Shown: piece by piece, positions 947-54,227 of the stretch
Layout of the letters: each line of letters begins with the position of its first letter
Position numbering within the stretch: position 1 is the first letter of the stretch
Made by a program: the position numbers and the translations under genes
The notes under the pieces: generated by a model
What the model was told of the DNA's origin: nothing
What the model saw: only the letters and a program-made list of their open reading frames with translations
The model's database searches: none
From: Cenococcum geophilum
Lineage: Eukaryota
DNA: 64,000 nt
NCBI GenBank assembly: GCA_050273025.1
Contig: CP158635.1
Coordinates: 9,300,001-9,364,000, forward strand
Direction of reading: 5' to 3'

Positions 947-1871
947 ATATAAGGGGTATACTTAGCAGAGGTACGTGTTGAGGCTATTGGGAATATAGCG
1001 GGGACCTAATAGTAGTATATCGCGCGCATACACAAAGGCTTTATGTAGAGCTTCGTATAAAGCCTCCGTACGCAGAGCTTCGCGCAGAGCCTTGTGTAGA
1101 GCTTTGTGTAGAGCTTCGTGCAGAGCCTCGTGCAGAGCCTTTATATGCAGAGCTTTGTGTAGAGCCTTATATAGAGCCTCGTGCAAAGCTTCGTGTAGAG
1201 CTTTGTGTAGAGCTTCGTATAGAGCTTCGTGCAAAGCTTCGTGTAGAGCTTTGTGTAGAGCTTCGTATAGAGCTTCGTGCAAAGCTTTATACAGAGCTTC
1301 GTACAGAGCTTTGTGTAAAGCCTTGTGCAGAGCTTCTATATATAGAGCTTTATATAGAGCCTCGTGTAGAGCCTTATGTAAAGCTTCGTGCAAAGCTTTG
1401 TGTAGAGCATTATGCAGAGCTTTGTATAGAGCTTCGTGTAGAGCTTTATGCAGAGCTTCGTGCAGAGCTTCGCGTAGAGCTTTATATAGAGCTTCGTGCA
1501 GAGCTTTATATAGAGCCTTATACAGAGCCTTAGTACGTAGAGCTTTGTATAGAGCCCGTAGAGCCTTATATAAAGCTTTATATAGAGCTTCGTGCAGAGC
1601 CTCGTGCAGAGCCTCTATATATAGAGCTTTATATAGAGCCTTGTGTAGAGCCTCGTGTAAAGCTTTGTATAGAGCTTCGTATAGAGCTTCGTGTAGAGCT
1701 TCGTGTAAAGCTTTATATAGAGCTTTGTGCAGAGCTTTGTATAGAGCTTTATATAGAGCCTCGTATAAAGCCTCGTGCAAAGCTTTATATAAAGCTTCGT
1801 ATAGAGCTTTATATAGAGCTTTATATAAAGCCTCTGTATATAGAGCTTTGTATAGAGCATCGTGCAAAGCT

Positions 1872-4800: not shown

Positions 4801-5106
4801 GCAATTAAGGGCTTTAAGGTAGAGGCTAAGGGGGAGGCTATGTCCGACGGTAAGGTAGTAGTTATTAAGGACGATGATATTATAGAGGAAGGTAAGGAAT
4901 CTAATGAGCCCATTTAACGATGTTTTTTGGTACGTTTAAAGACCTCCTACCTCTCAAATACTACACCAAATTCGTGCTAAGACTTACTATAAATAGTATA
5001 TAATTACACTGGAGCTCCGTGGCGCTCCTGGCTTCAAATCGAATATTTGGTGGATGGAGTGGATCTGGCTTCAAATCCGCTCCACTCCGATCCAAATAGA
5101 TCACTG
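1872..5106 (+). mobile_element. hAT-superfamily DNA transposon, full length, RIP-inactivated
   Basis: TIRs CAGTGATCTATTTGGAT / ATCCAAATAGATCACTG; perfect 8-bp TSD GCAAAGCT (1864-1871, 5107-5114); internal transposase remnant. Confidence 0.95.
2218..4917 (+). pseudogene. hAT transposase pseudogene with probable intron 3451-3639
   Basis: ATG at 2218; BED-like LIWRWG...FYCWL; SFNL*TSPN (SFDLWTSPN); YFIADN; RRLRCFSYITNL; NNQTR*NS; C-terminal ALNILTVPS..DKCERLFS dimerisation motif; many TAA/TAG stops derived from CAA/CAG/TGG. Confidence 0.88.
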
Positions 5107-5372
5107 GCAAAGCTTTATGTAGAGCTTCGTGTAGAGCTTCGTGCAGAGCTTCGTATAGAACTTTATATAGAGCTTTGTGTAGAGCTTTATGCAGAGCTTT
5201 GTATAGAGCCTTATGCAGAGCCTTAGTACGTAAAGCTTTGTATAGAGCCTGTAGAGCTTTATATAGAGCTTCGTGTAAAGCTTTATGTAGAGCTTTGTGT
5301 AAAGCTTCGTGGAGAGCTTCGTGTAGAGCTTTTTGCAGAGCTTTATGTAAAGCCTTATACAGAGCCTCTAGC

Positions 5373-7200: not shown

Positions 7201-7686
7201 GCAGGATATAAAAGGTCTTTATATCCTTTAACCAGACCTATATTAAGTATAGTATCCTTTAAGAAAATCCCTCCTTACTTTCTTATAAAGATACTTAAAC
7301 TATTAGCTGCCTTATCTCTTTAATAATAAGCCACTTAGACGCTATAATAGAGGATACTATATTATATTAGGCCGAGGTGCGCTTTAAACATTAAATTATT
7401 TACGGGATACCGCTAACGGAGCTAGGATATACCGTATACTTCCTATTCTAAGGGCTCCAATAAGGCCGTTAATATAGTAGGGTAGGTATACAATAGTTAC
7501 TTCTTCGTAGTTTTATTCGTTTGCTAGCTTACTAATATAAGTAGAATATCTAGTTAGTATTAGAACGTAAGAGCGATTTAGAGAATAATAAGGCTAATAC
7601 GAAAGGAACTATAAGGAAATACTTACTCCGCACTAATAAGATAAAGAAGTCATCTTAATATAATCCGTTTAGTAACTCCTTTTAAT

Positions 7687-8109
7687 TATTACGGACGCTT
7701 TAAGTACGATGTTACGACTACTAGGAGAGGAGTTAGAAGAAGCTAGTTGGTTAATTTAGGCACGGTTTAGGGTAGAGCCAATAGAACTATATAATAAGGA
7801 ATAGTAACTAAGGTTACATAACGTGCTACGTATTAAATAGAAGGAACGAGAGGAATTTACGTACCTTATATATAAGACGTATATTACGTATAAGAAGGAT
7901 TTTATAGAAGTATGGTTATGTATTTAAAGACCTTTAATCCCTACCTAGATAGTTCCTTTCTTGTAGTAATTCTTAGAATATAATTAGAGTTAATTTATTA
8001 GGCAACTACTCTACCAGTTATTATTACGTTATTAATTTTAATTTATATTACCTATATGCCTAGCCTAATAATAAGCCTATCATAGTTCCTATTATAAGGT
8101 TCCGTTACA
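7687..8109 (+). repeat. 5' LTR of Gypsy A
   Basis: T(A/G)TTACGGACG...GTTACA, direct repeat of 20374-20797. Confidence 0.9.
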
Positions 8110-11100: not shown

Positions 11101-11644
11101 AAGCAATAAGGAACTATATATTACTAGCAGCAGTTAAAAGAATAGGGTTACTATATAGGAAAAAGGAGTATCTTTACCTATTAGTAATAATTTTAGGAGA
11201 TCCGATAGCCTATAGAGGAGGTATTATTAACCTTAAAATAGGACCTATTTAGTTAACTATTAAAAGGAGATAGATTAAGATGTCTTTTAATATATTACTA
11301 TTAGGGAATAATAAGGCAGTACTAGGAATGCCTTAGTTATAGAAATATAATCTAAAAATTAATTAGGTTAGGTTAAGTTAATATTAAAGATACTTAACGC
11401 CGTAAGATATAATAATAAGCTAAGTTAGTATAGTACTAAGTTGGAGCAATATATAAAGAGACTAAGTAAGGCTTAAGTTATATACTAAAAAGATACCATA
11501 AGTATAGCAAGAAACTATAATGACTAGAAAGTAAAAAGCTATTAAAGTATATAGTATAGAACTATAAGATAGAATTAAAACTAAAAATAAGTCTAAGGTT
11601 CTTTCTAATCTATAAACTTACTAAAGAAGAAGGTAGAGCATTAA

Positions 11645-14600
11645 TAATAATAATAATAAATTCAATTTACCGCCCGTCCCGGTCCCCCTAGTGGGTCCAC
11701 GCAGGCTAATACCTTCTATAGGAAAAACTCTAACTTAGAGAAAACCCCACCTCGGGCCGCGCTGGAGAGATGGCAGCGTTCCGACATCGAAGCGCTGGCG
11801 ACTCGCCTTCTACCTGCCTTTAAGTCTGCATATTAAGCTAACTAGCCGCGCTTCGCGGACAATCTTACTCTACCCCCTTCTTTCCTTATTCTTTTATCCT
11901 TATTCTTTTACTAGTCCTCTAGGCTTTAAAAGGGCTAGTATCCACTTATATCCTCTATATCTATTACCTTTACTACCTAAAACTGGGGTAAAACACCTAA
12001 CTGTACCAGCCATTTTGCTGCTACTTAGGCGCTTTCTTTATTATTTAAAACATCCTAAAGGCGTTTAGAGGCGCATTTTGCTATAAAGTCCGCCCTTTAG
12101 TAGTGTGGACACTAGAGCAGCATATAGTGGACTATCTGCCTTATCTAGCCACATTTACACCGTGGGAGAACCGCTAGTATACTAACGGATACAAGCCATA
12201 TATTAAGCCCTATTACCTCTATACAAAGGAGAAATAGTACTATAGCCTCTACTTTTATTAGGTCTTCATATAATGGGATTATAGGTTTCCCCTATGGGGT
12301 CTTCTATATAGTTTCTGTGCGGTCTTTAACCTTTGCCTACCACCGTCGTCGCCATTCTAAATCTACCCATTTCGCGATAAAGGTGGTTACCTGCCTTTAG
12401 TGCTGGTGACCTCCTATACAGTAGCGGCGCTCCGCCTACGCTCTGCCGGTGTTCCGCTGGCCATACTTACGGGGGTTTATTACAGCTTCCCGCTCTATAT
12501 AATCCTTTTAGTGCGCAAGGAAGCCTTATATCTCATTTTTATAGTCCTTTACGCGTTCCCTAAGCGCTTCTAATAGTACTAGTGGCCGTTTTATTTTTTG
12601 CTAGTGCTTTACTAATATATTCCAGATACCGTTAAGTGCCTCTACTAATTCCTTTTCTACCCTATTAGAGGCCGTCTTAGCGGCTCTTTAGAGGGCTATC
12701 GTTTCAATATAGAGTTGGATTAGGGGAATAGCCGCTTCCTTCTCCATTACAGCTATTAGTGTTTACTAATATGCCCCTATAACCCTACGGAGACACTAGT
12801 TCTGGACTTTCTATAGTAGTTTAAGCAAGCTTTTCGCTAGCGTTCCGCCGTCGTCCCATACTCCCCACACTTAGGCGCTATATAGTATTACTAGTCGGAC
12901 GGTGGCTGTATATAGGAGGCGTAAGCGGCGCATTAATGGGCCCTATATAGACGCGGTAATCCTTAACATCGCTTTAAAGGCTACTAAGCCCTTACTCGCG
13001 GCCTTTTTAACCTATTCTTTCCATTAGAGCTTAGGGTCTACCCAGATCCTTAGGACTCGCATACTAGTTTTCTAAAGGGCTATCTCGCAGCCAGCGATAC
13101 GCACGGTAGACGCAAGGTCTACGGTGGCGTGGCGCCGTTGCCTTATAAAGTGCATAAGCTAGTACTTTTTAGGGGCGAACGCCGCCCCGTGTTAATTTAC
13201 CTATACAGCGCAGCAGTTATAGGCGGCCTCTAATCATTAACAGTTCTCTGCCGCGGAGTCCCCCTAGGTAATAAAGTTTGTGTCGTCTATAAAGCTAAAC
13301 CCTAGCGTGCCGCTATTAGGGCGCTAGAATTCCTTTAACAGCTCTAATATAAAAAAGAGGAATAAGATTAGTGATAAGGGTAACCCCTAGGGAATACCTG
13401 TCTATATCTAGATCTAGTTGCTCTTATATCCTATAAACTTAATACGGGTTTTATGTGCTGTTAGGAAGCTTTATATAAAGTCTATAAGCCACTTTAGAAA
13501 GCCTTTTCTTTTTAGAATATGGAGGAGCCTTTTATAGGAGACGTTGTTAAATACCCCTGCTAAGTCTAGGCTTAGCATTAACACCACACACCTACGGCGC
13601 GTTTACCACGCCGTCTATACGTAAGAGCTAAGCAGTCCTACTGCTAATAGTGTGGATTATTTACGCCTTACTCCCATCTAGTTTTAAGGGAGTAGCCTAT
13701 ACTCCTCCGCAGCCTTAGATATAATATTAGCTACATACTTTTCTAGGACTTTTACTAGCGTGTTTTTAAGGGCAATTGGTCTATAGCTGCCTAAGAGAGA
13801 GTAGTCTTTCTTTCCTTCTTTACGTAATACTATAGTTATAGATTCTTTAAGGCTTTCTGGTATTATTCCGCTAGCAAAGCAATAACTAGCTGCTTCTACT
13901 AAATCTTTTATAATAACTGGGGCAACTACTTTAAGGACCTTATTTGGTATACTATCTAGCCCTAGGGCTTTTCTATTTAGAAGACTCCTAATAAGCTTAC
14001 TGATTTCTTCTATTAAGATAGTAGGGCTAATATTAAGCACATTTTATTCCCTTATTGTCTCTATATCGCTAAGGTCTACTATTCTAGTTTTAGGAAAGAA
14101 CTTAGCTGTAAGGATATTAGCCTTTATAATATTATTGTCTATTAAGGGATCTTTAGTAGACCTCCTAAGGTCTAGTAGATAGGGGTCCGCCTTTACTACG
14201 CTTGCTTTTCTACTCTATTTTAATAGAGTCCAAAGTCCCTTATTATATAGTTTTAACTAGTCTTTAGTAAGTTTATAAACAAAGCGTCTCTAGTTATTAT
14301 AACTAACTCTCCTAGTCTCTTTTTATAGTTGGTTATTTAATACTAAATATCTTTAGTGGTCCTTGGGGTTATTATAAGCTTAGAGCTATTGTCGCGCCTA
14401 TTAGGCGCCGGCGTGGAGCTATATAGCCTATGGCGACTATTCTTAACAGGCCTACCGGCTAGGCTGTGCTTATAGGTAGTATTCTTTAAGTACTTATTTA
14501 ATCCCTTCCTAAAGGGCTTAAAAGGGGTCTTTAGATATAGTCCAGTTAAGCTCCTAGATGCTTTAGAGAAAGCCCTATAAGTTTAGCTTCTTAAGGGCGA

Positions 14601-16914
14601 GGCGCTAGCGTTCCGCTAGCGGATAGCTGGCGTTATTAATTTAGATGCGGATTGGTATATAGTCTCTTATAAGGGCCTATTCCTCAACTATACCACAAAA
14701 GTTAACTTTTCTGTATAAATCTAGTGATATAAACATAAGGTCTATTACACTCTCCTATTACCCTCTTTTCCATATAGGCTCTCCTTTTAGTGTGGCGAGT
14801 ACTAGGCCTCTAGCATCGGTTTCGGCCAAAAGGCGTTCCACCTACTCTTCGCTGGCTATATGCTTTCCGCCCTATATTAGGTAGTAGGCGTTAAAGTTAC
14901 CTAAGAGTATAATTTCTCCCTTGGCTTCCTTAATAGCCATTTTAACCTTAGGCTATGCCCTAATCTAAGGGCTATCTTCGCGCGGGTTATAAATATTAAT
15001 AATTATAGCCTTTAGCCCCTTTAGGCGTACCTAGAGGGCTACGGTAAAGGGGCCGTACTATCTACGCTTCTAATACATAGCGTTAATATTCCGGCTAATT
15101 ATAAAGTAGACCTTTATTATAGGGAGAGCGTTATATATAAGTGTGAATCCCCTAGGGCAGTATATCAATTTAGTATATCTATTATATACCAGCTCTTAAA
15201 TTATAAGGACCTAGTAGTCCGCCAACATAACGCTATTAAAGAAGGGGTAACACGCCCCTTAGTTTACATTTCCGCAGTTATACTAGATAATTATACACTT
15301 ACTTATTTAAAGTAGGTGTAGGCTCATCTATATCTATATCCTATTCCTCTTCATTTTCGCTATTAACTATTATCGCTCTATTAGCGCGAAGCTGGAGCCT
15401 TAATTATAATCTGTCTCTGCTTGCTATTTTAATAAAAGATAGTTTACCTAGTCCCCGTTTAAGTGGTTATTCTTAGGTCCCTAAATAAAATATTTCCTAT
15501 CCTCTTTTCTTATTAGTGCTAATTATAAGGTTTCTTGGTATTAAGGGTTAGTATATTATTTCTACGGCTTCTTATATACGGAGTAACTGCGTTAAAAGGG
15601 CTATCCTCTTTATTTAGATACCTTTAAGGTAGCTTTAAAAGGTCCTATACTCTTTTCTTTACTATACTTTATAGGCTTTACCGTAGTTAGTATAGGATAC
15701 CCTTTCCTTAGGGCAATTTATGGTGTTATATAGTCCCGCACATTACCTATATTTTATTTACTTTCCGTATACGCTTTATATATACCCCCATTAATTATAG
15801 CGGTAGTATTACTTTATAATTACGCTATTCTTAAATAGCCTAGTCTTAAAAAGCTAGGATTTAATAACTATCCCGCTTTTTATAATCTTTTGCTAAATTA
15901 CTTAGGTTAGGACGCTAATTATAATTATTCCCCTAGTCTTCTTAGGTTCTCTTTAGGCGCTACTAGAGTTTGCCTAGCGTTTCGCCTACGCTTTAGGGTT
16001 ATATAGCTATTAAATCCGGCTAATAGCTATCCTAGGCATAAGGCGCTTTATAGCTTCATAAATGGATTAAGTTAATTCTAAATTATCTACGTCCCTTCTG
16101 CTATTAATTAGAGTCTTAAGCGGGACTCCCGGTACTTCTAGGAGATAATCTTTCCTTAGTATCCTAAGTCCTAGCGCGTCTAGCCCGTTTAGGATTTAGT
16201 CCTTTATTGTTTGGGAGGGGATATAGACATCTACGTCCCTACTATTAAGGGTGCGTACGGCGTATACGCTTAGTATTATTCTCTAAATAGTCTTAAGAAG
16301 CTCCCCTAGTTCGTGGCCCTGGGGCTCCTTAAGCCGGACGCGTACACTCGCTCTCTATGGTGCCGCGACTGCGTTTACCGTGCGGGCCGCCTACGCAGCG
16401 ACGGCTGCCTAGGTTTAGACCTGTACTAGGGGAACTCCTAGGCCTAGGGGTCCTCCTTTACGCGTTTCTTTTTGGATTTTTTTAATACTAGCTTTAATTC
16501 GGTTAAGCTAGGCCTTAGTCTCTTGTTCTTAGGTTGTCTAGGGGACTAGACGCGTTAAGAGGGCTTTAATATACTATATTGCCTCTTAGACCGAGGCAAG
16601 TATCTAGTGCCGTAGAGTTTTTTCCTCCTCTTTTATAAGATCGTCTTTAATTTATTTAAGTATTTCCTTTAGTTTTTGCTATTGCTAGCAGCTGTCCTTT
16701 TCGCGTTATTGCCCACCTGGTTTATGGTTCGGCTCCCGCGCGTTATAACTCTCGCAACTCTAGTAGGGAGCCTACGCCCCTCCGTCATCCCCTATGCTCT
16801 AGATAGGGGGCGGCGTGGTTTTATAGGGTTTCTCGGTGCGGGGAATAGGATTCCGATATTAGGTTGCTTTATTAAGTGGTTTTTAGGCTAGTTTTGCTGC
16901 TGTTACGGCTTTTT
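11645..16914 (-). mobile_element. Tad1-like LINE, apparently full length, RIP-inactivated
   Basis: 14-bp TSD AGGTAGAGCATTAA (11631-11644, 16915-16928); (TTA)n 3' tail; ORF1 with CCHC knuckles ~15720-15830; ORF2 endonuclease start II*YNCG ~15290; RT motifs KKDYSLLGSYRPIAL, GIP*G.PLS.ILFLFF and GFSFIDDTN. Confidence 0.95.
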
Positions 16915-19699
16915 AGGTAGAGCATTAAAAGAGTTTATCTAGGAAAATCTATAAAAGGGATATATTAGACTATTGCAGTTATTAGTAGGTTATCTAGTAC
17001 TATTTATACTAAAGAAAAATAGTAAACTAAGGCTGTGTATTAACTATAGACAGTTAAATAGCATTACTAGAAAGGATAAATATCCTTTACCCTTAATTAG
17101 TAAGATCTAAAATAAGATAAGTAATATATAAATCTTTATAAAGATAGATTTAAGATAGGCGTACTATTAAATTAGGATTAAGGAAGGCGACAAATAAAAA
17201 GCAGCCTTTAGATTAAAAGAAGGACTATATAAACTATTAGTTATGCAATTTAGGCTTATAAATATACTAGTATCGTTCTAGAAGCGTATTAATAATATAT
17301 TAAAAGAATACTTAGATAAATTTGGTATAGTATATCTTAATAATATTATTATCTACTTAATAATGGAGGAAGAGCACGGAGAATATATTAAATAGGTTTT
17401 AAAGAGACTATAGGAAGAACAGATACTAGTAGCAATTAAGAAATATAAGTTCTTTATAAGGAAGACTAATTTTGTTAAATTTATTATTAAACTAGGCTAA
17501 CTTAGTATAGATCTAAAGAAGATTAAGGCTATAGTAAATTGGTAGGAACTAGAGAACATTATATAGTTAAAATCGTTTTTAGGGTTTTGTAATTACTGTA
17601 GAAGGTTTATAGCGTAATAGTTAAAGGATATTAAGCTATTTACGTAATTAACAAAGAAAGAGGAACTATAGGTATAGGGGGAAGAATAGTAAAAATTATT
17701 TAAATAAGTTAAGGAATTGTTTACCTAAGAGTTAGTTCTTAAGATCTATTAACTAGAACTAGAAACAATTATAAAAATAAATATATTAGACTATATACTA
17801 GGGGCGTACTTTATATAAAAATATTAAAATAAATAGCACCTAGTGGTATACTATAGTTGGAAGATAACACCACTAGAGTTAAACTATAATATCTATAATA
17901 AGAAGTTATTAGGTATAGTTACAGTATTAAAGAAATAAAGAGCATTTTTATAAGGCATAGAAAAACTATTTATAGTTAAAATAGATTATAAAAACCTAAT
18001 AGGATTCCTAATAATAAAGGAACTTAACTAAAGATAGGTTAGATAGGTAAAGATACTTATAGAATACTATTTTAAGATTTAGTATATTAAGGGTACAGAT
18101 AATATAAGAGTAGATGCTTTAAGTTAAAAGGCTAAACTATAAAATAATAAAAAGCTATTTGGGGCTTTACTATAAAAAGATATAGACGGTTTAATTAGGT
18201 TTAATTATCTAAAGATTATAGTAACTTAAAAAGAACTAGAAAGAGTTTATAAGTTACCAGAAAGCTTTTAAGTATAAAGAATTCTAAAAGTATAGCTAAA
18301 AAATCTATAGATAGATATATACAAATACTAGGAAGTAAAGTATATCCTAAAAAGCATAGTAGAGTAATTTATAGTAGATTTCTATAAAGGAATAACTTAA
18401 GGATATAATAGAGCCATAGGCTTAGTATTAAAACTCTAAAAGGAGTATATTATAGATAGAATCTAAGGCTTAGTATAGAAAGTTACTAAAGAATATTTAG
18501 ATTGCTAAAGAAATAAACTAATAAGGTATAAGCTATATAGAGGGCTATAACCTATTAAAATACCAGAGAGACTATAGGAGGTTATATTATAGAACTTTAT
18601 TATTAAGTTGTTAAAATTAAGAGATTCTATTATCGAATAAGATTACAACGTAATTTTAGTAATAGTAGATAAGCTTATAAAGTAGGCATACTTTATAGCG
18701 TATACAGAAGAAATATTAGCAGAAGATATTACTAAAATCTATATTAAGGAAGTATTTGTAAAATATGGAGCACTAAGTAAAATTATATTAAATAGAGATC
18801 TAAGATTTATAGCAGCATTTTAAGAGGTATTTTTAGCGGAATAAGAAGTTGGAGCAGTAACTTTTACTATATATTATCCGCAGACAAACAGTTAAATAAA
18901 AAGATTAAATTAGATACTAAAGCAGTATTTAAGATACTATATTAATTACGTATAGAATAATTAGGTATTATTACTACTAGTTATATAGTTTATATATAAT
19001 ATAATACCTTAAGAAGGAATAGGTATATTACTATTTAAGGCGAATTATAGATATAAGCTAAGAATATCGTTATTACTAAAATAAGCAAAGAAAATAAGTA
19101 GTATAGCTAAGAAAAGAATAAAGACGTTAATAAATCTTTATGCAGACCTTATAGAATTAGTAAAGAAAGTATAAAAAAGAATAAAAAAGTACTATAATAC
19201 TAAGAGATCTAAGGAACTAGATCTTAAGGAGGGAGATAAAGTATAGCTACTATATAAAAATTTTAAGAGTTAATAACTAAGTAAGAAGTTAGACTATATC
19301 AGACTAGAATCTTTTAAAATTATTTAAAGGATTTTACTAGTTATATTTAAGTTAAACCTACTAGCTAAAATAAAAATCTACCCTATATAGTATATCGCAA
19401 TACTAGAGCTAGTATATAGGAATATTTAGCTATTAGTCTATAAAGCAGACACGTATAAAGGGCAAGAAAAAGATAAATAATAAGTTTTAAAGATTATTAG
19501 CTATAAGACTATTAATAATAAAATATAGTATAAGGTAAAGTAAATAGGCTATAACGAGACTACCTAGGAGCTACTAGAGAATTTAAAAAACGCTATAGAA
19601 AAGGTATAGGAGTATTAGAAGAGATTAGGTTAGGTAGTATTAATAAAGAAGAATTACTAAAAAATAAGTCACCTAAGGGGGACTTAAAAAGAGTAGTTG

Positions 19700-20265
19700 C
19701 CAAACTACTTAGATCTATTTTCTTCTCGGCCAGAAAAAAGTCTATTCTTTTATTATTAAATTCCTATAAACCCTATTTTATAAGTTTTTACTCCTTAAAA
19801 CGCACCTTCTTATACACCTTCTTAAGATGGATTAACTAAGTAGATGCCGTAAGATAAGACTTAAGGGCCCTTTGCTAAGTATCGGCCGCCTCCTATTCTA
19901 CGTTATAGAAACGGCGTAACTCCGCTAGAGTAATAAATAGTTTATTATCTAGCTTTATAGTAGCAGATTAAATATAAAACCCTAAGATAAATTAATTAGG
20001 GAACTAGACGACTATTAAAAGTAATAAGTTACATATATTTAGTATTAGAGATAGAGTAAACATTATAGGATAAATAAATATTTACTTTAGTGCACTCTAA
20101 GTAAGAGGATAGTTATCGCGAAGATAGGTTTACCAATATAATATAAACTAACCCTTTTTTTAAATAGCGAGAATATGGAGACGGTATAATCTTACTAAGA
20201 GATAATATTATAGCGACAGTGCGAGCACGATAAAGAGTTAAAGAAGAAGAAATTACTTTAGGTAT
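19700..20265 (-). pseudogene. Antisense Cys6-type ORF in the 3' region of Gypsy A
   Basis: Reads IPKVISSSLTLYRARTVAIILSLSKIIPSPYSRYLKKGLVYII...SSR*LSSYLECTKVNIYLSYNV. With RIP reversed (TAT/TAC from TGT/TGC) this gives C-x2-C-x6-C-x13-C-x2-C-x8-C, followed by an intron and a charged helical exon. Confidence 0.7.
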
Positions 20266-20373
20266 AATAAGCAATAATATTAACGAAATTAATTAGACGG
20301 ATATTATACCTCTAGTAAATAACTTAGAGATATTAGGAATCTTTAAGGATAAAAATAAAAAGGAGGGAGATAG

Positions 20374-20797
20374 TGTTACGGACGCTTTAAGTATAATATT
20401 ATAACTACTTAGGGAAGAGCTAAAAGAAGCTAGTTAGTTAATATAAGTATAGTTTAGGATAGAGCCAATAGAACTATATAATAAGGAATAGTAACTAAGG
20501 TTATATAATATAATCTATATAATTTATATAATTTATAAGATCTATAATAGAGCAGATAGAATATATGTATATTACGTATAAAAAGGATTTTATAGAAGTA
20601 TGGTTATATATTTAAGGACCCTTAATCCCTACCTAGATAGTTCCTTCCTTATAGTAATTTTTAGAATATAATTGGAGTTAATCTGTTAGGCAACCACTCC
20701 ACCAGTTATTATTACGTTGTTAACTTTAATTTATATTACCTACACACTTAGCCTAATAACGAGCCCATTGTAGTTCCTGCTATAAGGTTCCGTTATA
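20374..20797 (+). repeat. 3' LTR of Gypsy A
   Basis: Preceded by the PPT; direct repeat of 7687-8109. Confidence 0.9.
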
Positions 20798-20865
20798 TAT
20801 ACGCGAGGTATACGTAAAAGTACGGGACTCTCCTATAGAGGCCCCTACGGTGGGGTTTTATAATA
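20798..20865 (-). repeat. 68-bp terminal fragment of a Gypsy E LTR, inverted
   Basis: Reverse complement matches the first ~70 bp of the LTRs at 51307 and 53443. Confidence 0.85.
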
Positions 20866-21322
20866 ACTATAGAACTTAAAAAACGTTATAGGAAATATAT
20901 AGGATTATTAAAAGAAAATAGATTAGGTAATATGAAGAAGGAGCTAAAATTAAAAGGATAAGCTAAAGGTAATAGATAAGCCAGATTATATAAGGGATCT
21001 ACTATTAGTATATAAGCTGTTTCCGCCTCCTTTTAATTATAATTCTTTTTAGCCTTTTTAACCTTAAGGTTATAAAGGCCTTATCTAACTAAATAAAGCT
21101 CCTTTAAGCGTACTTTCTTATAAACCTTTATAAGGCGGTTTAGTTAAGCGTAAGTATCTACTAATTAAGCCTTTAGAGCCTAAGACGCCTTATTAAAACG
21201 GCGCTAAATCTTAATAAGGGCTTTAGTTAGCTTACCCTCTACCCTTTTAGCCGCTATTAATACGTAAGACCCTAAAACAAATTTAATGAGGAACTAGGTA
21301 ATTATAAAGAATATTAAAATAT

Positions 21323-22147
21323 GGCCACTACTAGTTACACACCCCCTAATCACTGCGCGTACACCCCCCAATTGATACGCGCACACCCCCCACCTAACAG
21401 GCTTAGATCCCTCCTCTTCAGGTTAGAACGTCACGTGTGTGCGTGCGCAACTATCGCGCACCCATACCCAAATCAACACCTAGCATTTGCATACTTTTCC
21501 CTACATCTACCATGGCTCTCAACCCACCTCCGTTGAAGCTGTACGATTGCGCAAACTTTGTCCTTAACGATATCAACGAGTCCGCAAAAGGCTAGGGCTA
21601 TACGGTGTCAAAGTTTCGCGGGCGCGGGCGCGCCCGCGGGAGCAGCTCGCGGACGACAAGCGGAGGTGGCAGCAGCCAAATTAGTTCGTACACTGCCTCA
21701 CAAGCCACTACGCAATCCAATCAATCGACTTAGGAGCATTTAAGTAGTATTACAAGCGGTATTACAGGTGGCGAGAATGGTGGTAGAAGTAAGACGCCTC
21801 TGCAGATGGCTTGCTAAGTGTTGGTAGCAATATTTCACAAGCTTACAGCGGTTGTGGGGCCTTGCCCTTTCGGCAAAACTTTACTGAGGGGTCCTTTGGC
21901 GCATTCCAGCTCTAATTTGAACTCTATAAGTCATACTATAGTTAAAATTAAGACTTAATTGTGGTGGTATAGTCATAGAAATTGCATTTTAAAGGTTTAA
22001 TTTTCGCGATGTAGATGCATACAAGTCAAACGCACGTGACGTTCTAACCTGAAGAGGAAGGATCTAAGCCTGTTAGGTGGGGGGTGTGCGCGTATCAATT
22101 GGGGGGTGTACGCGCAGTGATTAGGGGGTGTGTAACTAGTAGTGGCC
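21323..22147 (+). mobile_element. Non-autonomous Mutator-like element (internal deletion derivative)
   Basis: ~120-bp TIRs GGCCACTACTAGTTACACACCCCCTAATC...; 8-bp TSD TAAAATAT; ATG at 21512 gives MALNPPPLKLYDCANFVLNDINESAKG*GYTVSKFR, resembling the FAR1-like N-terminus of fungal MULE transposases. The superfamily is inferred. Confidence 0.8.
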
Positions 22148-22284
22148 TAAAATATATACTTAGTATTAAAGACGGATTAAATATTATAGGATAACCGTAT
22201 ATTTGCTTACGTATACTTAGTATATAAAGAAGGTTAGCAACTAGACGGAGCCGTAATTATAATATATACTAACTGTTAGGAATA

Positions 22285-23909
22285 CAGCTATGTGCATGAC
22301 CAGCTTCACCCCCCCCTCTGGAGAAATATAAATTCGCTACGCGCATCTAATTTCGCTTGATTGCCACCAACTGTACATAGTAATCGTAGCGAACGCCTAT
22401 GCTTGGCTGTAAGAACCTTGCTTCTGAAGGACTTGGAGCTTCTGACGAACTTGAAGCTATTTACGATTGGCCTTCTTCTGCAGTGTTATGCTCTTTATCA
22501 AATACCGTGAGGTTTCCACCCGTACCGCAATATGGCTCCGCGAATGGGCCCATATCAGCATGCCCTAATTGAGGATCTTCTTCAACTTGGAGCTACTCGA
22601 GCAGAGTGTGCCTCCGCCACTAGTTGTACGATTCGCTTAATCGCCTTAATCAGAAGGAACCTGCGGGTGTTTGGATTGACTCGGGCGCCTGTAAACGGTA
22701 AGGGTGGCTAGTTTTCACTGAGTAACCGGATGATCGTGGTAATACTGATGCGGCTGGAGGAAAAGCCAACTCTCTTTGGTGATAAGTTGCAGTGGTTAAT
22801 CTTTGACATATTTAATGTCGTAGTAAGCCGCTATGTAATATTCCGAGAGCTCTATTTGGCTGGCTGGATGAGGAAGCGTGTAAGCCAATTGATCCTCTAG
22901 TAGAGCTTAGAGTAGCTTACACAAAGTAGTATCGCCAGGTGGCCCTTAAGCGCAGCGCTCACGATCGCAACATATATTTCGCCATTATATCATAATATAC
23001 CGCCGATCAACTGGTGTTTATAAATAAGTTGGGTGCGGATTCGAAGACGGGCGTGCGGAAGACTGGCTGGGCTCCCTCTAGTATTGCACCAGTTTCGCAT
23101 ACGCCATATAATCGGGGTAAGACGAGGCTTAATATACTGCCTGCATATACAGTCGACGGCGTACTAGCAGCTTCGGTATATAAAGGCTCAACAAACGGCG
23201 AAGGCTTTAAGTTCTGGGTAGCAAATACTCTTCTGCTATGGTGTAATCGCTTTTCTGCTAAGCGATTAGTAGTGGTTATGGATAACGCCAGCTTCCATTA
23301 CTCAGAGAGAATGCAGGCTCTCTTTAACGCCTTCGGTGTTAAGCTGGTATATTTGCCTACGTACTCACCTGATTTAAATCCGATTGAAGAGTTTTTTGGA
23401 GAGCTGAAAGCATTCATTCGGCAGCAGTAATTCTCTTGGGTAGAGGACCCGGAATCCTTTGGCTATAGCTTTAAAGCGTTTCTTCTTTGGAGTATAGATG
23501 AGGTTAGCAGCAAAAGTGAGAGCGCGAGAGGACATTTCCGACATAGTGGGTACGAGTGTTGAGGTTTTGGTGTGAGAGTTAAGATTAATCTTTAGTGGCG
23601 TTCTTGATTGTATATATGGCATTTATAAAAACACCAGGAGGCTTCAATCTCTCATGTATGGGGCGTCTCTGCTACTGTAGGCGCGCCAGCAGTGACGAAG
23701 ACACCTAATATCACGACTTTGGTAGATCAGGCAAGTTCTGCATGGCTTCAAATCGATCGTCCCTAGCAACCAGAACGGTCCTTGCGTGCAGCCATAGGCG
23801 TTCGCTACGATTACTATGTACAGTTGGTGGCAATCAAGCGAAATTAGATGCGCGTAGCGAATTTATATTTCTCCAGAGGGGGGGGTGAAGCTGGTCATGC
23901 ACATAGCTG
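22285..23909 (+). mobile_element. Tc1/IS630-like DD34E transposon
   Basis: ~117-bp near-perfect TIRs CAGCTATGTGCATGACCAGCTTCACCCCCCC...; TA duplication on both sides. Confidence 0.95.
22532..23562 (+). pseudogene. DD34E transposase pseudogene, intron 22880-22929
   Basis: MAPRMGPYQHALI...; removing GTAAGC...TAG joins the frames; FINKLG (from FIDESG), MDNASFH and YLPTYSPDLNPIEE with 34 residues between D and E; a few RIP stops. Confidence 0.9.
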
Positions 23910-25299
23910 TACAGGCAAGTTGCTATTACATGTCGCCGCGGCACTAGCGTAGCGAGGAGCCCTAAGCTCCTCGCCCTTCCTCAAGCAAGAGGAATATAGA
24001 ACAACAATCATCATACTACCTACAACTTATAGATACGTGATATCACTTTATGTTACCAACACTAACCTTTTCTCTATATAATAAGAATAGGATAGTATAA
24101 CTTTACCTAGTAAGAGGATAATAGTTACTAGCTAGTTATAATAGTTAGATATAAAAGATTTAATAAAAGGTATTAAAAATAATAAGGTTTATTAAATTAA
24201 GAATAGGAATGCTATACCTTTAATAGATAACTTAGAGATAGGAGATGTCTTTAAGAACGAAGATAAAAAGGAGGGGGATAGTATCACAGACTTTATATTA
24301 GTAGTAGTAGAACCACTAAAAAGAGATATAAATAGGTTAGTTAAGATAGTATAGAAGGTGTTAAAACTAATATAGCTATAAAATAAGGGGTAGTTAAGTT
24401 ATATAGCTAGTTATATTATAAGTTTAGAATATAGAAATATAGAAACTTAGGAACGTAATATACTAATATACTTAATACATTTCCCAAGTGTAGTTTTAAA
24501 TACTTAAAGGACTATAGTCCCTACTTAAACAGTTCTCTTCTTTATAGTAAATCTTAGAATATAATTAGAGTTAATCTATTAGGTAATCTACTCCACTAGT
24601 TATATTTACGTTATTGACTTTTTATTTACCTATACACTTAGCCTATTAATAAGTCCACTGTAGTATTTCCTACAAGGCTTTATTATAATATTAGTATACC
24701 ACTATATATTATCTATCTATTTAATCCCTACTTTAAACTGCTATAAAACTTTAGTAAGGAAAAAATATAAGTAATTACAAGACGATAATTTAATGGCAAT
24801 CTACGGCAATTTAATGGCAATCTACCGTATTCTACTATATTTTGCCAAGTTTTACTAAATCCTATTAAGTTCTGCTAGAACTACTACCTAAATCCTATTC
24901 TGCTCTATATATATATTAATTAAGCAACTAAGCTAATAATATATACCCTTTCTTCTCGTTTTCTTACCTTCCCTCCTTATATAACGTTTTAGCTTTATTA
25001 TATAGTTTATATATATAGCTTAATAATATCTACTTCGTTATATATTATCGTCGCTTATACTTACTCTATAATACTATATTACGTTAAACCTATACTACCT
25101 TACTCTACTTAATATACAGAATAACCTAAAAGCCCCTATATTTGTAATTAACTTACGTAATATATTTACTAAATAATTAAAGGGCCTATAATAGGCCTTA
25201 TAGACGCCCTTACTTAATAAAAGGCTTAATACTAAGTAATAATTAGATCCCTAAGAAAGAAAATTAAAGAGATCCGCTGTAACCTACTACCTACTATAC

Positions 25300-41599: not shown

Positions 41600-43590
41600 C
41601 TTTAGGTAGAGCCTTGTGCAGAGCCTTATGCAGAGCCTTATGCAGAGCCTTATGCAGAGCTTTGATAAAGTCTTGTGTAGAGCTTTGGTAGAGCCTTGTG
41701 CAGAGCTTTGGTAGAGCCTCGTGCGGAGCTTTATGCAGAGCCTTGCATAGAGCCACGTGCAGACGTATAGACGTGCAGACGTGTAGACATGCAAACGTGC
41801 AGACGTGCGGACGTGCAGACGTGCAGCCGTTTGTTCTAGCGATTAATTACAGAGACATTTATAGAGGCGGTTGTATAGGCAATTGTATGGGCGTTTAATT
41901 GATCGTTCGTACGGGCGTTTATGTAGGCGATTAATTAATTAATTAATTATATGGACATTTGTAGAGCTGTTCGTAGAGACGTTCGCATGGGCGTTTAATT
42001 AATTGATTGTATAGGCGTTTGGTTGATTAATTGATTAATTATATAGGCGTTTGCATAGGCAATTAATCGATTAATTGACGAATTGTATGGGTATTCGTAC
42101 GGGCGATTGTATAGACGTTCGTAGAGCCGTTTATAGAGCTGTTCGTGCAGACGATTATAGAGCCTTCCTATTATATTAGTGCTGCGTGTTAGTAGAAATT
42201 TAGAACTCCGTATTAAGCTTTAAGTAGAGTTTCGGGTAGAGCTTTGAGCTCAAGGGGGAAACCCCCTTGGACCCCCCCCCCCCCCCCCCCTACGCACTGC
42301 GTGCTCTATTTACTGTGTGGGCAGAGCTCTTGCAGAGGCTTTGGTAGAGTGTTTAGCAGAGCGTTTAGTAGAGCTTTTGTAGAGCTTCTGCAGAGCTGTG
42401 TAGAGCTTCGGTAGAGCTTTGTGTAGAGCTTCGGTAGAGCTTCGTGCAGAACTTTGGTAGAGCTTCGTGTAGTGCTTCGGTAGAGCTTTGTCCAGAGCTT
42501 TGGTAGAGCTTTGTGCAAAGCTTTAGTAGAGTTTCGTGCAGAGCCTTGTGCAGAGCCTTGTGCAGAGCCATATGCAGGCGTTCGCACGGGCGATTAACTG
42601 CAGAGACGTTTGTAGAGACGATTGTTTAGGCAATTGCATGGACGTTTGATTGATCGTTCGTACGGGCGTTCGTATGGGCGATTGATCGATTGATTAATTG
42701 TATAGACGTTTACAGAGCCGTGCGTAGAGCCATTTGTAGAGCCATTTATAGAGACGTTTATACGGGCGTTTGATTGATCGATTGTATAGGCGTTTAGTTG
42801 ATTAATCAATTGATTGTATAGGCCTTTGTATAGGCATTTGATTAATTAATCGATTAATTGTATGGGCGTTTATACGGGCGATCGTGTAGACGTTTATAGA
42901 GCCGTTTATGGAGCCGTTTGTGCAGATAATTATAGAGCCTTCCTAGTATATCATTGCTGCGTGTTAGTGGAGCTTTGAGCTCAAGGGGGAGACCCCCTTG
43001 GACCCCCCCTGCGCACTGCGTCCTCTATTTACCGCATGGGCAGAGCTCTTGCAGAGGCTTTGGTAGAGCTTTTGCAGAGCTTTTGCAGAGCTTTGTATGG
43101 AGGTTCGTGTAGAGCTTTTGCAGAGCTTCGGTAGAGCTTCGTGCAGAGCTTCGGTAGAGCTTCGTGCAGAGCCTTGTGCAGAGCCTTGTGTAGAGCCACA
43201 TGCAGGCGTTCGCACAGGCGTTCGTGCAGGCGTTCGTGCAGACGTTTGCGCAGACGTTTGTAGAGATATTTGTACGGACGATTGTAGAGCCGTCGTAGAG
43301 GCATTTGTAGACGTTCGTAGAGACGATTGTGAGACTTCCTAGTATATTAATGCTGCGTGTTAGTAGAGCTTTGGAGCTCCGTATAGGGCTTCGAGCAGGG
43401 CTTCGAGCAGGGCTTCGAGCAGAGCTTCGAGCAGAGCTTCGAGCAGAGTTTCAAGGATACCCCCTTAGACCCCATGCGCACTGCGTGCTCTATTTCACTG
43501 CGTGGCCAGTACACTGGGTGGGCAGAGGTGTTGTAAAGCCTTTGGTAGAGCTTTTGGTAGAGCTTTGGCAGAGCTTCGTACGGAGCTTAG
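41600..43590. repeat. Compound array: three higher-order units built from 12-bp GCAGAGCTTCGT, 8-bp GCAGACGT and TTGA/TTAA-type subrepeats, each closed by a hairpin plus C-tract
   Basis: Marker CAAGGGGGA(A/G)ACCCCCTTGGACCCC...GCACTGCGT(G/C)CTCTATTT at 42251, 42982 and (degenerate) 43452. Confidence 0.88.
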
Positions 43591-51306: not shown

Positions 51307-53236
51307 TGTTATGGAACCCTACCGTAGGGGCCTTTATAGGAGAGCCCCGTGCTCTTACGTATACCTTATATATAGCTTATATTAGCTACGCGTAGGTATA
51401 TTACCTCCTTACGCCCTTAACCCTTACGATTAATCGCGTAACGTCTTGTAGACTCCTTGAATATATACGCTCTATAGCTACTACCCCCGTTCTATAACAT
51501 TATATTATGCCTTTTTACTACTAACGCTTAGCCTATAACTAATTCTATATCTTTATAATACTATAGGCGCTACTAAAAGCAGCGTATTTACAAATTACCT
51601 TACTTTATACTTCTAAGGAACCTATAATAGTAAGACGATATTCCTTACTAGCTACTATATTAAACCTAAAGAATAATCTAATACCTATACTTAACCTACG
51701 ACGCCAATTAATCCTAGGAGAATTTAATTTATTAGACTTAGCCTTAACCCCTAAGAAGATAGACACTAATAATGTCTTATCTTTTATTAATTATATAACT
51801 ACGGATAAGTAAATAAAAGGGCTACTATTTATTAAAATCAAAATATAAGACGCCGAGACGTTTATAAAAATAGTAGTATAAGACTTTAATAAATACTACT
51901 ACCTAAAGCTTATATAAGCTAAGATGCGTACTGCCTAAGATTATAATATTATCTAAGACCTATAAGCTTATAAGGCGCTCGCTAATAATACACGTTAAGA
52001 AACTAAAGATAACCCCCGCGTGTCTAAACGCGACGTTTAATAGTTAAAGAAGAATAAGATTGTACTAATTGCTACAGTCACTAAAAAAGAAGGTATAATT
52101 AAATACTTATAATCTTAGCTTAATAAGCACATTTATAATAAACGCTACCTAAGTCTCTATACCTCCAGCAACTTTACCTACTTAACACTTAATAAAGGGT
52201 TGGCGCCAAGCAGCTTTACCTAATAAAAACCCCTACTAAAGTAGTAATAATAAAAGCTATAATAATTGGGCCTAAACTGCTACTATAGGGTCTAATATAC
52301 GTTACCTTAATCCCTTAGTTTTTTAGGGAAACTATAAGGAATATAGCTACTAAAAGATACAAATCCGCAAGAAATTAACTTAGAGCGCCTACCTTTTTCC
52401 TACGGAAGATACTAAGATTGGCTATATTATTGGGCGAATAAAGGGTATACTATTTAATAGACTCTTCGCCTAATAGGAGACTAGTAGCCCCTAGAAGTAG
52501 TAGTCTTACTAAAAAGTCCTTAATAATCTTAATTTAATATACCGTAACTATAACCTACTAGCTACTAATTAAGCTAAACTATATACCCCAAAGATAAGCC
52601 CTATTAAATTATTTAATAAGTTTTATATTAAATTCTAGGAATACACCAAAGTACTTACTTAAGATAATACTAAAGACTAAAAGGATCTTCTTAAAAAAGT
52701 TACCTATTGCCTTAGTTACGCAGCCGCTAGCTATAACTATAATAATATTTATAAGATAGTAGCAGCCCTATAAAAGATTAAATAACGACTAAATTAGATT
52801 ACTACTGCTAATTTTTACCCAAAGACCTCTTTATAAAAGCCTTTTAGGCCTACTAAACTTATATATACTAAGCTACTAACGCCTACTACCTTAAGTACTA
52901 CTAGAGCTAATATTAACCTCTCTATACTAACCTTTCTGTAAAAACTCCTAGACGGAGAGCGCGAGCTACTCTAGAAACTAAAATACTACTATAGATGCCG
53001 TTAAAAAGGCTATTATTATAATAACTTAAACTACCTAATAGCTAGGTTTAATACCTGCCGCCTAATATCTAACCTAATACCCTAAATACTAAATACATTA
53101 CTATACGCTACTACCATATAAGATAAAAATATAGTAATAGTAGTAGAATTAGATAGAGAAGTGGAAAACGCTAAATCCTAGCCCTAAGTTATAGGTTAGG
53201 ACGCCCTAATAATAGAGAGATCTATATATTAGCCTA
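51307..53236 (+). mobile_element. Ty3/Gypsy family E, copy a: 5' LTR (51307-51499) and gag, cut off just after the gag/pol junction
   Basis: Collinear with copy b (53443 onward, LINE and solo LTR removed) until ~53236. Confidence 0.88.
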
Positions 53237-54227
53237 ATATGCTTAATTTATATTTTCCTATTAAAGCTATTACAGGAGCTCTTGCTGTACCCGGCTTAAA
53301 AAGACTAAAACCAACCAAAAGAACCCTGAAAAACACCTAGAGAATCCCCCTAAAATGCATACATCGCAGGGGAGGCACATGTTAAGCGACGGTGGTTTGT
53401 ACTTGCGCGCGTTTACCAGAACCACGCCTAGCAATAGACCTCTATCACGGAACCCTACCATAGGGGCCTCTATAGGAGAGCCCCGTGCTCTTATATACAC
53501 CTCACGTACAGCTTATGTCAGCTACGCGTAGGTATATCACCTCCTTACGCCCTCGACCCTTATAATTGATCGCGTAACGTCTTGTAGACTCCTCGAATAC
53601 ATACGCTTTATAGCCACTGCCCCCGTCCCGTGACATTACGTTACGCCTTTTTTACTACTAACGCTTAGCCTACGACCAATTCTACGTCTCTATAATACTA
53701 TAGGCGCTACTAAAAGCAGCGTGTCTACGAATTACCTTACTTTATACTTCTAAGGAACCCATAATAGTAAGACAATATCCCTTACTAGCTACTATATTAA
53801 ACCTAAAGAATAATCTAATACCTATACTTAACCTACGACGCCAATTAAACCCAGGAGAATTTAATTTATTAGCCCTAGCCTTAACCCCTAAGAAGACGGA
53901 CACTAATAATATCTTATCTTTTATTAACTATATAACTACGGACAAGTAAATAGAAGGGCTACTATCTATTAAAATTAAAATATAAGACGCTAAGATATTT
54001 ATAAAAATGGTAGCATAAGACCTTAATAAATACTACTACCTTTTATAGAACTACTACCTAAAGCTTATATAAGCCGAAATACGTACTGCCTAAGATCGCG
54101 ATATTATCTAAGACCTATAAGCTTATAAGGCGCTCGCCAATAATACACGTTAAGAAACTAAAGATAACCTCTATATATCTAAACGCGACGTCTAATAGTT
54201 AAAGAAGGCATAATTAAATACCTATAA

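Follow-up and report, generated by a model that had tools for sequence, protein, structure and literature searches.

A RIP-killed antisense gene with a six-cysteine cluster in a Ty3/Gypsy retrotransposon family of Cenococcum geophilum

Element A and its antisense gene

The window, the whole stretch of 64,000 nucleotides that was analyzed from Cenococcum geophilum (contig CP158635.1 of assembly GCA_050273025.1), is repeat DNA of a RIP-competent fungus, with an excess of TpA and a loss of CpA and TpG. It harbors element A, a Ty3/Gypsy retrotransposon wrecked by RIP, in whose broken pol gene Pfam still matched reverse transcriptase (RT) and RNase H. In L047 (the locus also called L050), a sister copy with less damage, protease, RT, RNase H, the integrase zinc domain and SH3 were recognized, together with a weak Chromo match in the right place (profile positions 2-53, E 0.035), which lies below the cut-off in this damaged sequence. 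The order protease-RT-RNase H-integrase between direct LTRs with a polypurine tract (PPT) is that of Ty3/Gypsy chromoviruses. The parts of element A are:

about 7687..8108, plus strand: 5' LTR (82% match to the 3' LTR; ends read)
16915..19660, plus strand: pol with RT, RNase H, integrase, SH3 and a putative chromodomain, broken by RIP (Pfam on the window and on sister copy L050; collinearity)
19481..19624, plus strand: putative chromodomain, end of pol (weak Chromo match in the sister copy, mapped by alignment)
20357..20373, plus strand: PPT (read from the sequence)
about 20374..20797, plus strand: 3' LTR (match to the 5' LTR; ends read)

The upstream part of pol precedes a nested insertion of 5.3 kb at about 11644-16915, which breaks element A upstream of RT; the sister copies are continuous there. 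As the 5-base flanks of the two LTRs (7682-7686 and 20798-20802) differ and do not match as a target-site duplication, this copy may be recombinant. A piece beside the 3' LTR (20800-20863), which parts element A from the cut end of element B, matches in inverted orientation 51309-51366 and 53451-53508, the end of another repeat pair. Tandem arrays with units of 4/8, 14, 20 and 11/12 nt occur at 1-1850, 5043-5370 and 41600-43590, and the ends of apparent DNA transposons, those in L050 and L053 included, show the 12-nt unit again. The transcribed sister copy has an insertion upstream of RT, a DNA transposon with a transposase-like frame (L050 5226-8320); RNA contigs that derive from other loci cover the end of this transposon. 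The family is large: 40 of 3150 first-look candidates were scored, at 84-88% identity excluding the window itself, which gives a lower bound for its size and not a copy number.

On the strand opposite to pol, the window contains an extra gene that mutation has disabled; it is a copy of a genuine gene carried antisense by this fungal Ty3/Gypsy family. The window copy itself does nothing. An antisense, intron-containing cysteine gene between the chromodomain and the PPT had been proposed in the initial annotation, and its position, strand, layout and intron were borne out by the sister copies. The following features were read from natural sister copies, because the window copy alone would not show them:

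20256..20309, minus strand: alternatively spliced 54-nt GT..AG intron, which removes the first start codon (sister-copy RNA; splice-site conservation)
20037..20265, minus strand: exon 1 with the first Met column (ATA here), an N-terminal helix and the six-cysteine cluster; one stop here (alignment of loci)
20185..20187, minus strand: second Met column, ATA here, where a short form likely begins (ATG in 50 of 114 loci)
20065..20175, minus strand: cysteine cluster C-x2-C-x6-C-x13-C-x2-C-x8-C (alignment of loci)
19982..20036, minus strand: 55-nt intron, with the donor AT here and the acceptor AG intact (sister-copy RNA; switch of codon phase)
19593..19981, minus strand: exon 2, a long charged helix and then, overlapping the end of pol, a Ser/Pro-rich tail; seven internal stops here (alignment; sister-copy RNA)
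19820..19979, minus strand: variable first half of the exon-2 helix, with alleles common to element families (distance comparison)
21024..24158, minus strand: diverged second copy in element B, in pieces at about 24158-24045, 22278-22159 and 21271-21024 (profile matches, translations)

The antisense frame ends at a stop column at 19595-19593, beyond position 19700 where the gene had initially been taken to start, and overlaps the end of the chromodomain. In addition to the eight stops, the loss of both start codons and the loss of the donor, the window copy has retained only the fifth of its six Cys codons (columns at 20175, 20166, 20145, 20103, 20094 and 20067), and Pfam gave no match for its own two exons. 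All six Cys in the spacing listed above, a GT donor and an AG acceptor are present in L047, the least damaged sister copy, and 141 of the 169 differences between it and the window copy are G>A or C>T.

The copy in element B is split by two insertions with terminal inverted repeats, one at 22283-23911 in exon 1 (repeats of 140 nt, 94%) and one at 21323-22147 inside the intron (118 nt, 98%). These insertions are probably recent, since the stretch with them is far less RIP-damaged than its surroundings.

Sister copies and their transcripts

A metagenome scan confirmed 551 relatives, the best 80 of which were used. The alignment of 114 loci is composed of 45 loci of the own genome, whose sets exclude L040 (unrelated) and L035 (truncated), and 69 of these 80; the other 11 were too short or unplaced. 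At the six cysteine columns, in order, 58, 80, 47, 44, 100 and 54 of the 114 loci encode Cys, and all others encode Tyr except for one stop. Lys or Arg occupies codons 36, 60 and 76 in 93-100% of the loci. The first Met column is ATG in 25 loci and the second in the number given above, the rest being ATA, and no conserved ATG column was found in the LTR that could serve as an upstream in-frame start in the 114 loci. The main length classes of the intron between the exons are 55, 61, 124 and 130 nt. In L088 alone, the conserved part of the exon-2 helix contains a tandem duplication of 36 nt, which repeats a four-residue unit and keeps the frame.

The motif of Cys1-3 occurs at 17 places in the genome and at none in the control; 16 of these are element copies. 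The remaining one, unrelated L040 (about 1500-1533, minus strand), gives a weak Zn_clus match (E 0.03), is embedded in GC-rich DNA free of RIP and is probably a host zinc-cluster gene. Among proteins, a profile of 14 natural copies retrieved 173 clusters at E <= 0.001. Of 157 proteins examined, three have kept all six Cys, each with loops of 13 and 8 residues, and the columns contain almost only Cys or Tyr. Ten proteins looked up in clusters were all unnamed singletons, and no relative was found in the viral contigs searched.

Sixty-six loci, all found through the antisense gene itself, extend 1.5 kb or more downstream; in 65 of them the end of pol is located on the opposite strand, and it is on the same strand in none. 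This is the layout of an antisense additional ORF between pol and the 3' LTR. The gene is collinear with the element in the own-genome copies, and it occupies the same place in at least two families that differ from each other at 11% of the purine/pyrimidine sites of pol. Together with the spliced RNA and the selection described below, this agrees with the initial view of a third, element-borne gene beyond gag and pol. A fully intact element was not found among the 80 metagenome loci, all of which are RIP-damaged.

Transcription was analyzed for the sister copy. Among the runs listed, 20 hold at least half of the words of the sister locus; 13 are recorded as RNA, and four were examined. Contigs from three of these four runs, belonging to three studies, match the sister copy with 0 mismatches and skip L050 1329-1383, which is bordered by GT..AG. 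This segment is exactly the predicted intron (window 20036-19982) on the strand opposite to pol, the strand being inferred from GT..AG. No depth was observed over pol (L050 1948-5133) in any of the four runs. The 54-nt GT..AG intron (window equivalent 20309-20256), which contains the first Met column, is skipped in two of the three contig sets; one run retains it and one has both forms. Of the 114 loci, 107 have GT at the donor of this intron and 96 have AG at its acceptor. Spliced at the main intron, the frame has about 205 codons from the first Met. The transcribed sister copy is itself a pseudogene, with two stops and ATA at the starts. In the fourth run, raw reads added by species label (X21, about 12% read), no reads were found on the gene.

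The contigs end 60-90 nt past the stop column in two runs, and at the other side a contig with 0 mismatches reaches the position equivalent to 20397, inside the 3' LTR. Thus the proposed transcription inward from the 3' LTR holds insofar as the transcript comes from the 3' LTR side, but the contigs give neither start site nor level. The 3' LTR of element A is likely the site of the antisense promoter. CGG/CCG triplets were listed in the sister-copy LTR as raw occurrences.

Selection and helix alleles

Because RIP distorts dN/dS, which the initial annotation had suggested, a codon-position test was applied in which the natural sequences were recoded as purine/pyrimidine. RIP changes only C>T and G>A, hence this test is immune to it; at most 11 outlier loci per region were left out. 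Changes shared by at least three loci fell on codon positions 1/2/3 as 17/7/39 in exon 1 (p 3e-6) and, in the shifted frame, as 23/20/45 in the exon-2 helix (p 0.002), p values that are optimistic because related loci are not independent. The 55-nt intron was flat (6/8/6), and the phase of the third position switches across it as predicted. The pooled pol control leans to third positions as well (22/20/34) and was not significant (p 0.10), probably because pol varies little. Over the last 150 nt of exon 2 (19745-19596) no clear phase was found (15/9/13), and both strands may be coding in this part. Wherever at least two loci share a length change in an exon, the frame is kept; such changes in the helix comprise 4, 7 or 11 residues, sizes that keep the helical register. 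Between the near family (106 loci) and the distant family (8 loci), changes are distributed as 3/3/11 in exon 1 and 5/5/14 in the exon-2 helix. The initial annotation had named a lack of conserved cysteines, or neutral evolution between families, as speaking against the gene; the Cys/Tyr columns and these counts show the opposite. The results support selection on the gene as a protein.

The first half of the helix is exceptionally variable. Among 20 cluster representatives of the near group its mean distance is 0.19, compared to 0.02 for the adjoining pol segment. L033 and L047, from the same genome, are identical in pol (0 of 320 purine/pyrimidine sites) and differ at 33 of 138 sites in the helix, whereas L033 and the distant-family locus L060 differ at 35 of 320 sites in pol and at only 15 of 138 in the helix (Fisher p 0.0065 for the two helix values). 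Within the distant family, L114 and L060 show 2 differences in 320 pol sites and 35 in 138 helix sites. This family contains two allele classes about 0.25 apart, and for each of its eight loci the near family offers a relative at a distance of 0.11-0.13, matching the divergence of the pol segments between the families. With classes so far apart and cross-family distances at the level of pol, the helix alleles look older than the family split. According to our own reading of the sequences, they may reflect balancing selection; neutral shuffling of helix segments by recombination could also give rise to allele sharing. The sharing hints at a role in recognition.

Resemblance and possible role of the protein

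The six cysteines form two CxxC pairs accompanied by basic residues and a helix downstream, as in GAL4-type Zn2Cys6 domains. The GAL4-type pattern is C-x2-C-x6-C-x5-12-C-x2-C-x6-8-C; with 13 residues in L047 and in all three six-Cys proteins, the middle loop of the antisense protein is one residue outside its strict form. Further differences are a helix and a strand predicted before Cys1 in a low-confidence model, the segment after Cys2, which is more basic in Gal4, and the size of about 205 aa, for which the usual Zn2Cys6 regulatory region is too long. PF00172 matched 12 of 32 aligned members at E <= 0.5 (best E 0.0014), with printed scores of 14.4-16.5 against a cut-off of 21 and coverage of profile positions 16-38 of 39, half the motif. 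DUF3716 (PF12511) matched three of the 32 (best E 0.002) and covers the whole motif. For an intact homologue, P0003, the DUF3716 score is 16.4 against 22 bits (profile 7-59 of 59, E 0.0086), so that the printed scores of both profiles stay below their cut-offs. Of the Zn2Cys6 identity proposed initially, a half-motif match therefore remains, below the cut-off and about as weak as that of DUF3716 to the whole motif. Assignment to Zn2Cys6 is weakly supported by these profiles, and membership in the GAL4-type factors is tentative.

Structure comparisons were less informative. Neighbours of P0003 in the Atlas were a cluster of 204 aa labelled 'Zn(2)-C6' (TM 0.69) and DUF3716 clusters (TM 0.73 and 0.64), all under the bar of the tool. 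Models of exon 1 (pLDDT 56 and 45) were too poor to test the fold, and Foldseek and VIA-align with the better low-confidence model were uninformative on it (best E 4.2, best Z 2.4). A sequence search of the PDB gave one chance-level match. Exon 2 retrieved generic helix neighbours only (0.80-0.82), and a two-copy complex prediction of its helix scored 0.00, without a usable answer. The helix expected after the cysteines is present as a long charged helix in exon 2, but a canonical leucine heptad was not seen in the one natural copy checked (at most 0.33 large hydrophobics at a/d).

REP9-1 and REP9-2, DUF3716 accessory genes of the Zymoseptoria class II transposon REP9, are likewise cysteine-rich accessory genes of a fungal transposon, and expression of REP9-1 is described to lower the number of pycnidia (PMC8232023). 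They differ in that the antisense gene resides on a retrotransposon, not a DNA transposon, in that a long helix follows its cysteines, and in that its DUF3716 match is below the cut-off.

As the best explanation we propose, at a probability of roughly 0.45, that the product binds zinc, regulates the element and uses its variable helix to contact a partner. The six cysteines very probably bind zinc, and the protein would work like a small zinc-cluster protein with a helix for contact with a partner or for self-association. In a functional element, the inner end of the 3' LTR would carry an inward-firing promoter. Its transcript, spliced once, would yield a protein of about 205 aa from the first Met; spliced twice, it would lose the first start codon and yield about 179 aa beginning just before the cysteines. 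Introns that are antisense to the reverse-transcribed genomic RNA survive retrotransposition, and for this reason those of the antisense gene do so. In the nucleus the factor may act on the DNA or chromatin of its own element, setting transcription or guarding it from silencing, and to such a role as regulator or anti-silencing factor we give a little under an even chance. The variable part of the helix would decide which partner is bound, a sister protein or a host factor.

The absence of fixed stops from the pol frame, which each of the four main intron lengths preserves, raised a different origin of the reading frame: the stretch could be a long sense-strand C-terminal extension of Pol, with the antisense frame as its shadow. 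No column of the pol frame from the chromodomain to the LTR (19596-20400) has at least 95% stops in the 114 loci, whereas the other five frames have 4-12 such columns. However, the third position of pol is the least variable one in the exon-2 helix (20 vs 45), splicing of the RNA is seen on the opposite strand, with no RNA over pol, and in one subfamily another sense frame is equally open over the gene (two fixed stops each; one of 74 loci was not projected in this comparison). For the helix, its phase and the opposite-strand RNA largely refute such an extension, which we regard as very improbable. Similarly improbable is a host gene that was captured once and decays neutrally inside the element. 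The weak likeness to host Zn2Cys6 factors would fit it, but the codon-position test between the families contradicts it, as does the fixed position in at least two of them; that no longer host form was found among the 8000 best-sharing candidates of 409-2000 aa is weak evidence in the same direction. Somewhat less improbable is that the protein is incidental and the antisense RNA matters, be it by interfering with the transcription of gag-pol or by way of double-stranded RNA or small RNAs. The transcript does overlap the end of pol and persists in a copy with a broken frame, and such effects have been proposed for plant elements (PMC7264820). On the other hand, the six conserved Cys columns, the bias to third positions in the two exons and the indels that keep the frame need selection on a protein, alongside which a role of the RNA could coexist.

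A reading that overlaps in part with the regulator is possible, if less favoured: a factor of specificity or conflict acting on the host or on related elements (self/non-self, copy-number control, host development), whose old alleles would reflect balancing selection. It draws on the helix contrasts of L033, on the two allele classes of the distant family with their near-family relatives and on the effect of REP9-1 on pycnidia. However, old segments could also be spread without selection if co-packaged elements recombine, only eight loci represent the distant family, all of them damaged, and the link to DUF3716 is weak, with the few matches given above. Its widest form, which we consider unlikely, would be a zinc-cluster accessory protein of fungal chromoviruses whose helix is an allelic specificity cassette under long-term balancing selection, like self/non-self loci, with an intron-retention switch between long and short forms and a DUF3716-like part that serves as an anti-silencing or recognition module shared by unrelated fungal transposons.

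For antisense extra genes of fungal elements, the source paper on brtn is reportedly Zhao et al. 2011 (Virology 417:248). This gene is an additional antisense gene of Boty (BcGypsy1) of Botrytis cinerea (cited in PMC8365987, PMC7264820 and PMC4227169), and it is ranked among the antisense ORFs between pol and the 3' LTR (PMC7264820). Boty, too, belongs to the Ty3/Gypsy elements of fungi and carries an extra gene in antisense orientation, and its chromodomain has a probable counterpart here; compared by description only, the citing passages give brtn no cysteine cluster, start-removing intron or shared alleles, and two supplements of PMC8365987 do not contain the name. Plant counterparts are gene23 of maize Grande and the antisense ORFs of rice RIRE2, Silene Retand and bean PvRetro13 (PMC7264820). 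As described there, they share position, orientation, presence in most copies and an own antisense promoter, which parallels the own antisense transcript of the sister copy. They belong to another kingdom, and that account mentions no six-cysteine domain for them; it describes some of their products as nuclear and gives the proposal that they act in regulation. The gene layout is thus already known from Boty and the plant ORFs, and what antisense extra genes do in LTR retrotransposons is described as an open question (PMC7264820). A literature search, with thin coverage of subscription journals, found no six-cysteine antisense gene, start-removing intron or allele sharing. The gene described here adds RNA proof of splicing in a sister copy, an alternative intron that removes the start codon, and alleles common to families. 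With a gene structure fixed by RNA, a probable metal-binding head and natural alleles at hand, comparison of alleles and binding experiments become feasible on natural homologues. Should the alleles encode specificity, this would give retrotransposons a recognition system of their own.
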